This document shows, one piece after another, positions 51,368 to 57,722 of a DNA stretch of 64,000 nucleotides. Below the pieces are notes generated by a model. That model saw only the letters and a program-made list of their open reading frames with translations. It had not been told where the DNA came from and made no database searches. The stretch comes from Candidatus Woesearchaeota archaeon (GTDB lineage Archaea; Nanobdellota; Nanobdellia; Pacearchaeales; GW2011-AR1). The position numbers were made by a program, and so were the translations under genes. Each line of letters opens with the position of its first letter. Positions within the stretch are counted from its first letter, which is position 1. The stretch covers positions 56,285-120,284 of the forward strand of contig CAZLHJ010000001.1 in assembly GCA_964559675.1 (NCBI GenBank). Direction: 5' to 3'.

Positions 51368-51904
51368 TTAATCGGACTTTCCAATCAAATTTTCTATCTT
51401 CTCAAGCCTTTCCAAGAATCTATCTATCTTATATTCTAAATCTTCTATCTTAACTTTCAAATGATCTACGCTCGCTAACGAACTCGTAGAGCCATAACTC
51501 GAAGAAGAACTAATTGAACTAGAATCAGAAGAAGCTCCAAAATTAGAGAAATCCATAAAAGAACCTGAGTCACCAGGTGAGCTAAATGAACTTGTTGAAC
51601 TAGAATTTACACCCGAGTTACTTGAGTTTCCAGAAGAAGAAAAATCGTTCCCAAAAAATCCGGCAAATGTACTACTCTCATTCCCAGAAGTTCCAGAACT
51701 AGATGAATTCTGAGGTTGAGTTGGCTGACTAAAACTTTGATTTGTAGAGAATGAACTTAAATCAACAACATCTGCACTTGAAGCAACGTTAGCTCTTTTT
51801 GTAATGTTCTCAAGTCTCTTCGCTTTTTCAAGTAATCTCTTGCTTTGCTCACTAGTTAAATCAAGAGTTTCAATAGAAGAATCCTCAAACCACCCCATCT
51901 TCAA
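51368..51904 (-). CDS. hypothetical protein with long Ser-rich low-complexity segment
   Basis: N-terminal and C-terminal coiled segments flank an S/G/N/F-rich region. Confidence 0.4.
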   Translation of the reverse strand: MKMGWFEDSSIETLDLTSEQSKRLLEKAKRLENITKRANVASSADVVDLSSFSTNQSFSQPTQPQNSSSSGTSGNESSTFAGFFGNDFSSSGNSSNSGVNSSSTSSFSSPGDSGSFMDFSNFGASSDSSSISSSSSYGSTSSLASVDHLKVKIEDLEYKIDRFLERLEKIENLIGKSD

Positions 51905-53134: not shown

Positions 53135-53244
53135 ACTCTCTTTTATTTATCCAGATTAATAAATCTAACTCCTTCTTTTACTAAAAGTAACTTATAAGTA
53201 ACAACAGCCAAAAGCTTTAAAAATGCCCCAAAGTAGGATAAAGT

Positions 53245-53385
53245 ATGGCAAAAGCAAAAATCTCAATAACTATTGATGAAAAATTGATAAAAACGATAGA
53301 CAAAGTTTTAAAAAATAAACAATTTAGAAACCGATCACATGTATTAGAATATTCATTATCAAAATTTATGGAAGATAAAAAATGA
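53245..53385 (+). CDS. ribbon-helix-helix (CopG-like) small protein (not in the supplied ORF track)
   Basis: MAKAKISITIDEKLIKTIDKVLKNKQFRNRSHVLEYSLSKFMEDKK. Stop overlaps the next start (ATGA). Confidence 0.5.
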   Translation: MAKAKISITIDEKLIKTIDKVLKNKQFRNRSHVLEYSLSKFMEDKK

Positions 53386-54428
53386 ATGGGCTAGAAAAGA
53401 AGTTTTACAAAATTAGAACCGTTACACAAAAGAGAAAACTCAATTTAACTCAAGTATTTAGTCCAGAAGGTCTCGTTCAAAGAATCCTTGACCTATGCCC
53501 CTCAGAGTCTTTAGAATTAAGATTTCCACTTCTCCCAGGAAACTTCTATGCAAGAGATAAAACAAGGGCAGAAGCCTCAAAAAAAGCATGGAATCACTTA
53601 TCGCTATTAAAACTAGACCAGCCTAAAACTCAAAATGAAGCTCATCATTCAGAAGAAACTCCTCAAAAAATCCTAAAGCGTTCTCTTACGGATATGAAAG
53701 GAGATTTCGATGGATATTCTTTTGTTCCCCTTATGGGAGGAGATAAAAGAAGAAGAGTGGTCCCCTTTATTTGGACTTTAGAAGCAGCAAGAGATTTTGC
53801 ATTTTACTCAGAATTAGGAGAATTTAGAGTTAAACCTTATGTGGATGCAAGAGCAGTTCCATTCCAAGGAGGAGATGTTTTAGTTACATTCCCTCAACTT
53901 AATGGTAAGGACTCAAGATACGTTATAAACCTAAGATCTCTCCCAACAAGTGATTCTACATTCAAGGGTTTAGATTTAAAGAACGCAATTATCTGGGGAA
54001 TTAATTCAGAACATGTAGAAAGACCGAATGCCCATAAAGCAGTAAGTGCAACAAGATACAATTCTGGAGAGATAGCAACTCACAGAGATAGAGAAATTAT
54101 TTATCCGGAAGAAATAGTAGCATATCTCGCAACGTGCAATCATTTTCAAGCAGAGAACAATCCAATCCTAACCAGGATGAATCCATTTTTCCTTCCTTCA
54201 AGAGAGTTAGCAGAATTCTATAAAAAACTAGAAAATAATGTAATTATTTTCGATAAAACTCTATCTAAAAAGAATAATAAATTTCAAAACGGACACCTTC
54301 ATGCAATAGAGAAATCCAGACTATTGGGAAGAGCAATTTCCCTTCTTGGTCCAGATAGGGCAATTTATTCAAATAAAAGAGATGGAAAATTAAGAGATTA
54401 TGATTGGTCCACTCTAGAGGTCGCGTAA
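53382..54428 (+). CDS. hypothetical 348-aa protein (operon with RHH gene)
   Basis: No recognisable motif; TAAATG junction with the next gene. Confidence 0.5.
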   Translation: MNGLEKKFYKIRTVTQKRKLNLTQVFSPEGLVQRILDLCPSESLELRFPLLPGNFYARDKTRAEASKKAWNHLSLLKLDQPKTQNEAHHSEETPQKILKRSLTDMKGDFDGYSFVPLMGGDKRRRVVPFIWTLEAARDFAFYSELGEFRVKPYVDARAVPFQGGDVLVTFPQLNGKDSRYVINLRSLPTSDSTFKGLDLKNAIIWGINSEHVERPNAHKAVSATRYNSGEIATHRDREIIYPEEIVAYLATCNHFQAENNPILTRMNPFFLPSRELAEFYKKLENNVIIFDKTLSKKNNKFQNGHLHAIEKSRLLGRAISLLGPDRAIYSNKRDGKLRDYDWSTLEVA

Positions 54429-54878
54429 ATGACAACTCTAGCAGAATTAACAAGAAAAGTAAGGGAAAAAATCACACAACCTAATTTAATTAGAACTATT
54501 CTTACAGACCAAGATTTAGAAATATGGTTTGATGAAGGAAAAGGAGACATTCAAAATATGGAGTCGCTTAAAATTGAACCAAATTCAGATTCAAAATTCG
54601 TAGCAGATTATTTCGGTATATGCCCGTATGGGCCCTTCCAGACTTTTCTTTCTCCCAGGAATTCTCAATTAATCCAAGGATCTAAAATTTTAAACCAAAT
54701 TAGAGAAAGAATTCAAGGAATAAAAGATTCAAAAAAATTTGAACAATATTCTCCCAGAACAAATAATTTTTACACTCAAATCGCTTCAGAAAGAACAGAT
54801 CCTCAAAATTATGAAGAAGCAGAAAGAGCAGCTTTAACCATAATTGATATATTCAATATAAGGGGAACTAACCCTTAA
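54429..54878 (+). CDS. hypothetical 149-aa protein
   Basis: No recognisable motif. Confidence 0.45.
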   Translation: MTTLAELTRKVREKITQPNLIRTILTDQDLEIWFDEGKGDIQNMESLKIEPNSDSKFVADYFGICPYGPFQTFLSPRNSQLIQGSKILNQIRERIQGIKDSKKFEQYSPRTNNFYTQIASERTDPQNYEEAERAALTIIDIFNIRGTNP

Positions 54879-55413
54879 ACGCACTATATCCTTCTCTACT
54901 ATAATCCTCTCTAGTAATTGTTCCCTTTCTTGCTTTTTTATTCCACCTATCATTATAATCTTCTTGACTTACATGATACAATAAATCGTCTATAAACAAA
55001 GTATTTGTACTTCCGTCAAAATGCCACGCTACTCTTCTATCTGTATGTCTTTGATGCGGAGAGATATTAAAATCTCCAATTTTCTCTTTGTCCGGAGTTG
55101 CAATAGGATTCGCAGCAATTGTCCTAATCCTATTAACGTATGCAGGCATATTATTCCGTACTCTTGGATCATCTCTAGCTCTTTCCAATGCCTTATTAGA
55201 AATTAAAATTGTTAATGGACTTGCAGTATGTCGGGCCATTAAGATTAAAACTCCGCCCGCAACTAAAAACCAAATAGCATAAATTGTTCCAGCCTTAAAA
55301 TCTGCTCCCTCAAATACAACATATCCTGTAATCCCTTGAAGTGAATTAAGCACAAGAACAAAACCAATAAGTAAGAAAGATACTCCTAAAATTCTAAACA
55401 CTCTCTTTTTCAT
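54868..55413 (-). CDS. hypothetical membrane-anchored protein
   Basis: Two N-terminal TM helices plus a soluble domain. Confidence 0.4.
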   Translation of the reverse strand: MKKRVFRILGVSFLLIGFVLVLNSLQGITGYVVFEGADFKAGTIYAIWFLVAGGVLILMARHTASPLTILISNKALERARDDPRVRNNMPAYVNRIRTIAANPIATPDKEKIGDFNISPHQRHTDRRVAWHFDGSTNTLFIDDLLYHVSQEDYNDRWNKKARKGTITREDYSREGYSAFKG

Positions 55414-55419
55414 TTTTAT

Positions 55420-55953
55420 TTATCTTCTTTTATCTTTAAATAAATTTTCTTTTATCTCCAAAGACATCTCTTTAACTACTTCCTTAAAACCATATTTTTC
55501 GTAAAACTTTATTGCAGGAATATTTTCGGAATTTACGGATAAGGCAATTCTCTCAACTTTTTTCTCTTTAAACCATTTTATTAATGCATCAGTTAATTCT
55601 CTTCCAACACCTTCTTTCCTATATTTTTTATCAACAAAAAAATCTCTAATACTCGCTTCTTTAGAGTATCTCATATATTTAGTCCCTCTTCTGACAACTC
55701 CTTCAATATATCCAATTAATTCACCTTCAGAATCTGCAACATAAACTCTTTTATTTACATTTCTCAAAACTTCAAGAAAATATTTTTTATAATTTTCTTT
55801 AACTTCAGAATTAGTTCTTAACTTAAGGGATCTAATGATTTTAGCATGATAATCCATATTTTTCCCAGCAAGTTCCGACAATTTCTTTATATCTCCAGAG
55901 GTCGCTTTTCGTATTTTCATTCCTTCAAATATCCGCCTTTCTGTAAATTCCAC
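55420..55953 (-). CDS. GNAT N-acetyltransferase
   Basis: YRKEGVGRELTDALIKWFKEKKVERIALSVNSENIPAIKFYEKYGF. Confidence 0.85.
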   Translation of the reverse strand: MEFTERRIFEGMKIRKATSGDIKKLSELAGKNMDYHAKIIRSLKLRTNSEVKENYKKYFLEVLRNVNKRVYVADSEGELIGYIEGVVRRGTKYMRYSKEASIRDFFVDKKYRKEGVGRELTDALIKWFKEKKVERIALSVNSENIPAIKFYEKYGFKEVVKEMSLEIKENLFKDKRR

Positions 55954-57722
55954 AATTTCCTATATTGACCTTGCTGATTAATAAGATCATTATGTTTACC
56001 AATCTGAACTATCTTTCCTTTTTCCAGAACAACAATTTTATCTGCTTTCATAATTGTACTTAATCTATGTGCAATAATTATGCTTGTTCTCCCTTGCATT
56101 AATTTTTCTAAATCTTTTTGTATCTCATATTCTGTTTCTGAATCAAGAGCAGAGGTAGCTTCATCTAAAACTAAAATTTTCTTATTAGCTAAAATTGCCC
56201 TTGCAATTGAAACTCTCTGTCTTTCTCCTCCAGACAATTTTACTCCTCTTTCTCCCACAATTGTATTTTCTTTCTGAGGCAAATCCTTTATCAATCTGTC
56301 AAGTTGAGCGAATTTAATAGCTTTAAAGACTTCTTCTTTACTCGCAGAAGGATTAGAAAATTTGATATTATTAAAAATACTATCATCAAATAAAATTGCT
56401 TCTTGAGGAACAATGCTTAATTCTCCTCTTAAAGATTCTTGTTTAACATTTCTTATGTCTACTCCATCAATTTTTATACTCCCTCTCTTTACATCATATA
56501 ATCTGTACAATAGTTTAACTAAAGTTGTTTTTCCACACCCAGAATGTCCAACTAAAGCAATTTTCTCTCCAGAATTAACATCTAATGTAATTCCATGCAA
56601 CGCCCTATTTTTCTTCCCATCATATGTAAACTCAACATTATCAAACTTAATTTCTCCTCTCTTAATATTCAATTTAGGTGCATTTGGCTTATCTTCAATT
56701 TCATTATTTACTTCAGCATATTTGAATAGGTCGTCTACATCTCCAAGAGAAGTATAAAACCTTCTTATCCCGTGTACAAATCCAAATAATGGATTCACAA
56801 GATTAAGATAAACTGTATAAATGAAAGTTAGAGTTCCAATTGTAATCTCTCCATTTAACAATTTTATTAACGGGAAATAAATAAGGAAAAATGTTCCAAT
56901 TCCTAGAATTAAACTCTCTCCTGCTCCAAACCACATTCCATAATTCCAAAATTTAACTAATTTAATTTTAGTTTCTTCAGCTAATTTTCCAAATTTTCTC
57001 TTAATCCAATTCTCTTTTCCAAAATACTTAACAGAATCAATATTAGTAAACGTATCTGCAATATTTGCTTTCTCTATATCTTCTGCAGCGTTAGCCTCGT
57101 ACTGGGCTTTCTGCTGTTTCTTTGAGATATATATTCCAAATGCAAGGAAAGTTACAGAGGTTAAAAGTAAAACTAAAGCAGAGATCTTATCGAAATAATA
57201 AATTGATCCTCCAACAATAAGAATTTGTAAAATCAATGGGGCGAAATTAAATATAAAAAAGTCAGTTAAGCCTTCAACTGCTCTTCCTCCTCTATTCATT
57301 CTAGCAATTAAACTTCCAGTCTTATGCGTTACGTGGAATCCATGGTGTAAATTGACTATATGGTTGAAGAATTTTGTTTTTATATCAAACATCATTTGAG
57401 ATTCGACTCTATTCAATAAACTAATTTGAACAATACTTATAACGAATTTAGAAATAATTACTAAAATAAACGCAATTCCTACTCCAATTAATGCTTGAAC
57501 AAAGAAATTTCTCGCAAGCTCTCCAGCAACATATTCAGTTCCATTATCAATTACAATTTTAAATAAAAATTTATCGACAACAGACAAACCTTCTCTCAAT
57601 GTAGTAAATATGATAATGAAAACAAAAAGCCACCTATATACTCCAGCTACCCTGAAGTAAGTTTTTATGTTTTTCATAAAATCTATTTTCTCATCTGGTT
57701 TTTTTCTGCCTTGAACTCCCAT
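55917..57722 (-). CDS. ABC transporter, fused permease/ATP-binding exporter (MsbA-like)
   Basis: Six-TM N-terminal domain; GHSGCGKTT, LSGGERQRVSIARA, LVLDEATSALD. Confidence 0.95.
   Translation of the reverse strand: MGVQGRKKPDEKIDFMKNIKTYFRVAGVYRWLFVFIIIFTTLREGLSVVDKFLFKIVIDNGTEYVAGELARNFFVQALIGVGIAFILVIISKFVISIVQISLLNRVESQMMFDIKTKFFNHIVNLHHGFHVTHKTGSLIARMNRGGRAVEGLTDFFIFNFAPLILQILIVGGSIYYFDKISALVLLLTSVTFLAFGIYISKKQQKAQYEANAAEDIEKANIADTFTNIDSVKYFGKENWIKRKFGKLAEETKIKLVKFWNYGMWFGAGESLILGIGTFFLIYFPLIKLLNGEITIGTLTFIYTVYLNLVNPLFGFVHGIRRFYTSLGDVDDLFKYAEVNNEIEDKPNAPKLNIKRGEIKFDNVEFTYDGKKNRALHGITLDVNSGEKIALVGHSGCGKTTLVKLLYRLYDVKRGSIKIDGVDIRNVKQESLRGELSIVPQEAILFDDSIFNNIKFSNPSASKEEVFKAIKFAQLDRLIKDLPQKENTIVGERGVKLSGGERQRVSIARAILANKKILVLDEATSALDSETEYEIQKDLEKLMQGRTSIIIAHRLSTIMKADKIVVLEKGKIVQIGKHNDLINQQGQYRKLWNLQKGGYLKE

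Follow-up and report, generated by a model that had tools for sequence, protein, structure and literature searches.

A probable ribbon-helix-helix-headed operon around a divergent member of a conserved DPANN protein family in a Candidatus Woesearchaeota genome

The window analyzed here is a 64,000-nucleotide stretch of contig CAZLHJ010000001.1 from a Candidatus Woesearchaeota archaeon (GCA_964559675.1). Direct reading of the open reading frames (ORFs) recovered three co-directional genes at exactly the coordinates of the original prediction. The first gene (53245–53385, + strand) encodes a 46-aa ribbon-helix-helix (RHH) protein. The second (53382–54428, + strand) encodes 348 aa, and its start codon overlaps the stop codon of the RHH gene; the predicted coupling is present as an ATGA at 53382–53385, which combines the RHH stop with the next start in a 4-nt overlap. 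The third (54429–54878, + strand) encodes 149 aa and abuts the second as described, with a TAA at 54426–54428, an ATG at 54429, and a gap of 0 nt. The overlap, the absence of any gap, and the one TATA-like promoter ahead of the first gene argue for one compact transcription unit, and the three genes are probably co-transcribed. The convergent neighbor that had been noted (54868–55413, − strand) is also present and encodes a 181-aa protein with two hydrophobic N-terminal segments. The 3′ ends of this gene and of the 149-aa gene share 11 nt, and the neighbor is not a member of the operon. One homolog of the 181-aa protein was found, in a Pacearchaeota metagenome-assembled genome (MAG; locus L037), where it is not adjacent to the relative of the 348-aa gene.

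Shuffling the window 100 times gives an expectation of 0.03 for ORFs of at least 149 aa and of 0 for those of at least 348 aa, indicating that the two longer ORFs are beyond chance. About 105 ORFs of at least 46 aa are expected by the same procedure. Thus, the length of the first ORF is not significant, and the case for the RHH gene comes from homology; both the JGI and the ENA gene callers predict it. The start of the 348-aa ORF is confirmed by its N-terminus, MNGLEKKFYKIRT, which aligns with the family consensus MxxKKxFFxERT. The locus is flanked by genes for GluRS, ThrRS, a GNAT protein, an ABC exporter, and a PAPS reductase. The GC content is 0.28–0.35 throughout the neighborhood without a compositional island, no integrase, repeat boundary, or compositional shift was found near the locus, and no tRNA genes or Rfam families were found within the window.

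The 46-aa protein is basic (pI 9.9) and adds a new member to the CopG/Arc/MetJ class of RHH proteins. Its direct match to RHH_1 (PF01402) is sub-threshold (E 0.0093; 16.3 bits vs. the gathering cut-off of 20.5 bits), and membership in the PF01402 class comes via homology to a PF01402-positive protein. In BLASTP, it shares 35% identity over 40 aa (E 5e-13) with a 46-aa protein that has a recorded PF01402 match. Weak matches to RHH_1, HicB-like, NikR N-terminal, and phage repressor profiles (E 1e-2 to 1e-4) converge on the same class, and together with the BLASTP homology they bear out the RHH identity that had been proposed for the first gene. A resemblance to MazE-antitoxin-like profiles is weak. 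The pattern KISITID ... RNRSHVLEYSL appears to fit a beta-alpha-alpha layout of ~45 aa, and the BLASTP alignment spans residues 3–42. Homologs were found by jackhmmer in four other lineages (L005, L010/L020, L056, and L071). Judged from its sequence, the 46-aa protein is presumed to be a CopG/Arc/MetJ-type DNA-binding protein that regulates the operon.

The divergent intergenic region upstream of the RHH gene (53135–53244; 110 nt) contains the likely promoter. Reading of the sequence places an A/T-rich TATA-like box, TTTAAAAAT, at 53216–53224, about 25 nt 5′ of the RHH ATG, and this apparent spacing would fit an archaeal transcript that is leaderless or has a short leader. A repeat search located an imperfect 16-bp palindrome, GTAACTTATAAGTAAC, at 53187–53202, which is a candidate RHH operator; palindromes of this sort are common in AT-rich DNA, and both the promoter and the operator roles are putative. 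By analogy with known RHH regulators, an RHH dimer or tetramer would most likely bind the promoter region and auto-repress the operon. A shared operator 5′ of the homologous RHH genes was also sought and rejected, as the palindromes there are unrelated in sequence.

For the 348-aa protein, a word-indexed search returned only a self-match, and a single-protein scan of genome contigs returned nothing. This appearance of an orphan was overturned by an exhaustive HMMER search of 1.84 billion representatives, which recovered 201 relatives at E ≤ 1e-3; the count falls to 109 at ≤1e-10 and to 36 at ≤1e-30. The relatives are mostly 320–380 aa long and align end to end at 25–40% identity, and the phmmer alignments cover residues 5–343 of the 348-aa query, such that membership is full-length. 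We use the label FAM for this uncharacterized DPANN family of ~350-aa proteins, as defined by a 79-sequence alignment (A1). The family HMM matches the window protein at E 1.9e-107, with the window sequence itself among the model's input. FAM relatives fall in singleton clusters and are deeply divergent. Searching the word index with the A1 profile yielded only four proteins, and the alignments A1–A4 contain no conserved stretch of 7–10 columns. The conserved blocks in A1 include GYSFxP, DxRxRxVPF, EGAR, VPSRT...RY...VP, and FxPHxIAAY, as well as MNPFxxPS, FYxKLxNNVLIxD, LRKLxxxEKS, and RDGxLxxYxW.

As predicted, neither the 348-aa nor the 149-aa protein has a recognizable domain, and neither has a match with a meaningful E-value in Pfam, NCBIfam, PADLOC, PHROGs, or PDB sequences. 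The same is true of the family. The named FAM members are all annotated as "hypothetical protein [archaeon]", and neither the 79 members of A1 nor 10 longer or atypical members have a match in Pfam, NCBIfam, or PADLOC. Domain fusions were looked for in the longer or atypical members, and none were found. A FAM profile search of PDB sequences gave no match, Rep, primase, helicase, and HUH signatures are absent from the window protein and the 89 scanned members, and a literature search found no paper on FAM itself. FAM proteins are basic (median pI 9.35, net charge +11.5), and 85% of the members have a pI above 9, compared with 41% of the neighboring proteins. The AlphaFold check proposed with the original prediction produced a confident AF2 model of the 348-aa protein (pLDDT 92.4, pTM 0.92). 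Fold comparison was by Foldseek only, and this found no match for the model in PDB or BFVD.

For a survey of the taxonomic range, GTDB genomes were scanned with a back-translated degenerate DNA motif, G[AG]x[VILF]xxxVPSRx5[RK]Yx6[VI]P. The scan yielded 71 loci, of which ~66 are true FAM carriers according to the family HMM. Almost all carriers are MAGs of Candidatus Woesearchaeota, Pacearchaeota, and Nanoarchaeota; a few belong to Parvarchaeota and Aenigmatarchaeota, and a handful of loci have odd bin labels. The same motif had zero matches among the 2.9 million viral contigs of IMG/VR.

By homology, the window protein is a member of FAM, and judging from its residues it is an atypical one. 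The near-invariant residues of the family are K6, F9, G111, G163, P171, S172, Y180, R304, and Y340. Retrieval with the VPSR motif favors canonical members, and the conservation figures for positions 172 and 304 are from the unbiased alignment A1, in which 77 of the 79 sequences have Ser at 172 and 74 have Arg at 304. The window copy carries the substitutions S172Q, R173L, R304G, G73L, P263L, H243E, and F9Y. It departs from the family at 10 of 33 conserved sites (family median, 4), and its nearest unbiased relatives (P0003, P0004, and P0005) retain the residues that are changed. In the neighbor-joining tree, the terminal branch of the window copy is the eighth longest of 75. With the loss of Ser172/Arg173 and Arg304, the window copy may have altered or reduced activity.

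The proposed survey of neighborhoods in related genomes was based on heuristic ORF calling in 8-kb locus chunks followed by clustering, and the upstream comparison covered ~63 independent loci, namely 60 with at least 200 nt upstream (the window included) and three further contexts. An RHH gene lies directly upstream of FAM in two of these. The overlap of an RHH gene with the FAM start is limited to the window and the L010/L020 (P0009/P0155) lineage. In the neighbor-joining tree, L018 and P0004 rather than L020 are closest to the window copy, which places the RHH adjacency on two separate branches. Among 10 other loci with small ORFs 5′ of FAM, none of these ORFs encodes an RHH protein, and one encodes an HNH_3 protein. 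In three more loci, an RHH homolog lies no more than 2.5 kb from FAM. The RHH homologs of L005, L056, and L071 precede unrelated genes, and those of L071 head operons of helix-turn-helix (HTH)-rich proteins.

The partners of FAM vary between genomes. In one locus, FAM directly follows the RNAP-L7Ae-NusA-S12-S7 operon; in another, it follows Nop5-fibrillarin; and in a third, it overlaps a 203-aa gene and Kae1/TsaD within an Rpb7-Spt4-S24e-S27 operon. MetRS is immediately 3′ of FAM in several species, and the other neighbors include AP-endonuclease-like TIM barrels, TrmB-like regulators, M42 peptidases, class II aaRS, and TruD. A same-strand downstream neighbor within 60 nt of FAM is present in 29 of 63 loci. 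On the P0155 contig, the genes that come after the RHH-FAM pair encode an HTH-rich 438-aa protein and a NUMOD3 protein. Upstream of the pair are a Prim-Pol/AAA_25 gene and numerous small ORFs, and the contig end has a faint integrase match. The HTH-rich family is directly 3′ of FAM in L020, L033, and L035, and lies within 3.5 kb in about six loci in all. In addition, about seven FAM loci encode large proteins that begin with a NucS_C-like nuclease domain. These nuclease and HTH contexts suggest that some FAM members are tied to DNA transactions. The window locus is without the HTH-rich, NucS-like, HNH_3, and NUMOD3 partner genes.

The ABC exporter of the window (55917–57722, − strand; 601 aa, with ABC_membrane and ABC_tran domains in Pfam) has orthologs of 46–72% identity beside or near FAM in seven other loci. 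The exporter gene is convergent and downstream of FAM in L036, L081, L050, L062, and L063, and in some loci only a few bases separate the two. It is downstream on the same strand in L007, and ~1.7 kb upstream in L035. The FAM proteins of the exporter-bearing loci have 32–36% identity, which is below that of the exporters. Such retained synteny points to a locus that has been inherited vertically. Furthermore, the exporter directly follows FAM in some relatives, suggesting that the 149-aa, 181-aa, and GNAT genes were inserted between the two in the lineage of the window.

The 149-aa protein is acidic (pI 5.3) and probably helical. The AlphaFold check suggested for this protein was carried out, and the resulting single-sequence AF2 model is unusable (pLDDT 39). 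Its sole relative is a 97%-identical allele of 145 aa from the same organism. Across the locus, the four contigs from this organism differ only by a 12-nt in-frame deletion inside the 149-aa gene; the deletion preserves the frame, which fits a translated ORF. With this one indel and no strain-level substitutions among the four contigs, there is no material for a dN/dS estimate. No homologs of the 149-aa protein were found in ~75 FAM loci. A derivation as a remnant from the HTH-rich proteins encoded after FAM in other loci was rejected (hhalign probability 0.2%). The 149-aa protein is a species-specific orphan, and it was probably added in this lineage and is not an ancestral partner of FAM.

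On balance, and with a confidence only a little better than even, we favor the explanation that the locus is an ordinary, probably autoregulated, RHH-headed operon around a divergent copy of a conserved and probably nucleic-acid-associated DPANN protein, with a lineage-specific orphan at its end. The second gene is the local, fast-evolving copy of a vertically inherited, basic, DPANN-wide protein of ~350 aa. The original prediction had instead pointed to a toxin-antitoxin (TA) or defense module. In such a module, the RHH protein would be the antitoxin or repressor, and infection or stress would release a toxic effector, either the 348-aa protein, the 149-aa protein, or both. Many type II TA loci do have a small RHH gene that overlaps the next gene, the RHH protein has its weak HicB-like and MazE-antitoxin resemblances, the 149-aa protein is an orphan, and the RHH-FAM pair recurs once in the mobile-looking context of P0155. 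However, FAM occurs without the RHH gene in ~61 of 63 loci, which would be intolerable for a toxin, and homologs of the 149-aa protein occur nowhere else. The idea of a toxin or defense effector does not hold for the 348-aa protein, which belongs to a large DPANN family that is conserved over its full length, is almost always found without an RHH partner, stands alone or lies within or beside housekeeping operons in other genomes, and keeps its exporter synteny. Known toxin domains are absent according to Pfam and NCBIfam (and, for FAM, there is also no Foldseek match), and no defense link of the 348-aa cargo emerged from PADLOC-DB v2, which has 0 matches among the window proteins and the 79 FAM members. 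The locus also lacks a GC anomaly, and its flanks are housekeeping genes; the single mobile-looking context belongs to a distant FAM member. As the pair is not co-conserved, carries no toxin or defense signature, and lies in a housekeeping syntenic context, the TA/defense explanation fails and is very improbable. Conserved housekeeping orthologs in all archaea had been named at the outset as the pattern that would speak against such a module. A weaker form of this pattern was found, with orthologs in housekeeping contexts in many DPANN genomes and not in all archaea.

Alternatively, the locus may be the remnant or cassette of a mobile element, comparable to a plasmid copG-rep operon, in which the RHH protein controls a DNA-processing FAM and the window copy is decaying and domesticated. 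The P0155/L020 setting, with its HTH-rich, NUMOD3, and Prim-Pol/AAA_25 genes, small ORFs, and faint integrase match, is in line with this, as are the tight coupling of FAM to NucS_C-domain and HTH-rich proteins and once to an HNH_3 protein, the RHH homologs that head operons of HTH-rich proteins in L071, and the loss of conserved residues from the window copy. Yet FAM members are deeply divergent rather than near-identical across hosts, as seen in their 25–40% identity and singleton clusters. Moreover, the absence of viral matches, the many plainly chromosomal housekeeping loci, the conserved exporter synteny, and a window locus devoid of an integrase, a repeat boundary, or a compositional shift all make a mobile origin unlikely. 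It is also conceivable that the adjacency is meaningless, such that the RHH protein is a general transcription factor placed upstream by chance and the shared transcript is a product of genome compactness. Overlapping or abutting unrelated genes are common around FAM (the 29 of 63 same-strand downstream neighbors within 60 nt), FAM partners differ between genomes, and RHH homologs precede unrelated genes in L005, L056, and L071. Nonetheless, the same 46-aa type of RHH protein overlaps the FAM start in two distant lineages, and RHH homologs lie within 2.5 kb of FAM in the three additional loci; chance adjacency is thus an improbable explanation as well. Within the favored explanation of an RHH-headed operon, FAM may be a cellular factor that binds or processes nucleic acids, a suggestion of low confidence that draws on the charge of the family and on its AP-endonuclease-like TIM barrel, NucS-like, HTH-rich, aaRS, and tRNA-modification partners. 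A bolder version is that the DPANN-wide FAM, with a predicted alpha/beta fold without a solved counterpart, acts on nucleic acids in DNA repair/maintenance or in tRNA/translation, and that the window copy, having lost the most conserved Ser/Arg residues of the family, has come under RHH control with a new 149-aa partner. This version is speculative and rather unlikely.

Plasmid copG-rep operons, such as CopG-RepB of pMV158 and ORF56-ORF904 of the Sulfolobus plasmid pRN1, offer one comparison for this locus. As in these operons, the RHH gene of the window comes first and overlaps a much larger downstream gene, and by analogy autoregulation would be the expected mode. However, the downstream gene of the window is not a recognizable replication protein. 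The window protein resembles CopG/Arc/MetJ (PF01402) proteins in being a basic protein of ~45 aa with an apparent N-terminal beta-strand motif (KISITID) and two putative helices, but it falls under the Pfam gathering threshold and its operator is only a candidate. NikR provides the best NCBIfam match of the 46-aa protein through its N-terminal RHH domain (E 1e-4). The window protein lacks the C-terminal nickel-binding ACT-like domain and scores far below the cut-offs (22 vs. 175 bits), such that the likeness concerns the RHH fold only. Type II TA systems with RHH antitoxins (ParD, CcdA, RelB, and HicB-C-terminal) are alike in having a small, overlapping, upstream RHH gene. They differ in that the window partner has 348 aa, has no toxin domain, and is conserved without the antitoxin in ~97% of loci. 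The layout of the window is therefore like those of copG-rep and RHH-antitoxin operons in geometry only.

Archaeal genomes are known to contain blocks of lineage-specific families dominated by proteins lacking functional predictions (PMC9258230), and the protein-family content of DPANN has been described (PMC8204110). FAM resembles the lineage-specific hypothetical families of both studies in being DPANN-restricted and without a functional prediction, but it was not matched to any numbered family in either. What is new for FAM is a structure model predicted with high confidence and without a PDB match, a list of conserved residues, and a set of recurrent neighbors.

The evidence points away from defense and TA functions, and the locus thus carries little weight as a module of that type. 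Its value lies in an uncharacterized, DPANN-restricted family of more than 200 sequence clusters that has no relative by sequence or by Foldseek. FAM is a concrete target for structural genomics and bears on what reduced symbiotic archaea retain in their small genomes. Once the function of FAM is known, a useful natural comparison would be the window copy, with its Ser172/Arg304 lost and with a regulator and an orphan gene gained as partners. If FAM does act on nucleic acids and its window copy has been placed under RHH control with a new partner, this locus would be a snapshot of the neofunctionalization of a lineage-core protein.

The genes that adjoin the DPANN-wide family of ~350-aa proteins (FAM) at the loci found by motif scanning of GTDB genomes (L-numbers) include two recurrent types. 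HTH-rich proteins of 370–500 aa, with multiple weak HTH matches, are encoded at L004 (3–968), L020 (3859–5175), L033 (700–2196), L035 (3882–5036), and L071 (2527–4897), and such genes repeatedly lie downstream of the FAM gene or of an RHH gene. These proteins have no Pfam assignment and share a conserved C-terminal block (RYxVEGRFYxDSxxEGAVALLLEKY...DFLVxDxFLEWHPI), which looks nuclease-like. The second type comprises large NucS-like proteins of 600–1000 aa (L033, 2198–5257; L054, 4373–6481; L062, 3045–5471; L072, 4200–6032), which have an N-terminal NucS_C-like (PD-(D/E)xK) domain followed by a long C-terminal part without annotation. Their genes adjoin the FAM gene in several DPANN MAGs. In addition, a 91-aa HNH_3 endonuclease gene of a Nanoarchaeota MAG (L026, 3846–4121) ends 1–2 nt upstream of the FAM gene.

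In the window, the convergent gene at 54868–55413 (minus strand) encodes a 181-aa membrane protein. A clear homolog (jackhmmer E-value 8e-93) is present in a Pacearchaeota MAG (L037, 5824–6444), where it adjoins a large NucS-like protein rather than a FAM gene. Within the 149-aa gene, comparison between the window and locus L001 revealed a 12-nt in-frame deletion (54726–54737) in one of the four contigs of the source organism, which are otherwise identical; the loss of four codons gives a 145-aa allele (P0002).

Farther out, a GNAT acetyltransferase gene (55420–55953, called with a GTG start) overlaps the end of an ABC exporter gene (55917–57722) by 37 nt (55917–55953). Other gene callers place its start later (166 aa), which reduces the overlap to 4 nt. 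The 178-aa ORF at 51368–51904 (minus strand), flanked by GluRS on one side and by the divergent 132-aa and 264-aa genes on the other, has no family match; its long low-complexity middle is Ser/Asn/Gly/Phe-rich, and its C-terminus is coiled-coil-like.

The FAM member P0155 (L010/L020 lineage) lies in a 15-kb stretch of a contig from JGI 3300072015. This stretch contains Prim-Pol/AAA_25, about 12 small ORFs that are all co-directional, and RHH-FAM-HTH-NUMOD3, followed by MFS, GNAT, APH, and a faint integrase match. The stretch may represent an element integrated into the genome of a DPANN archaeon.
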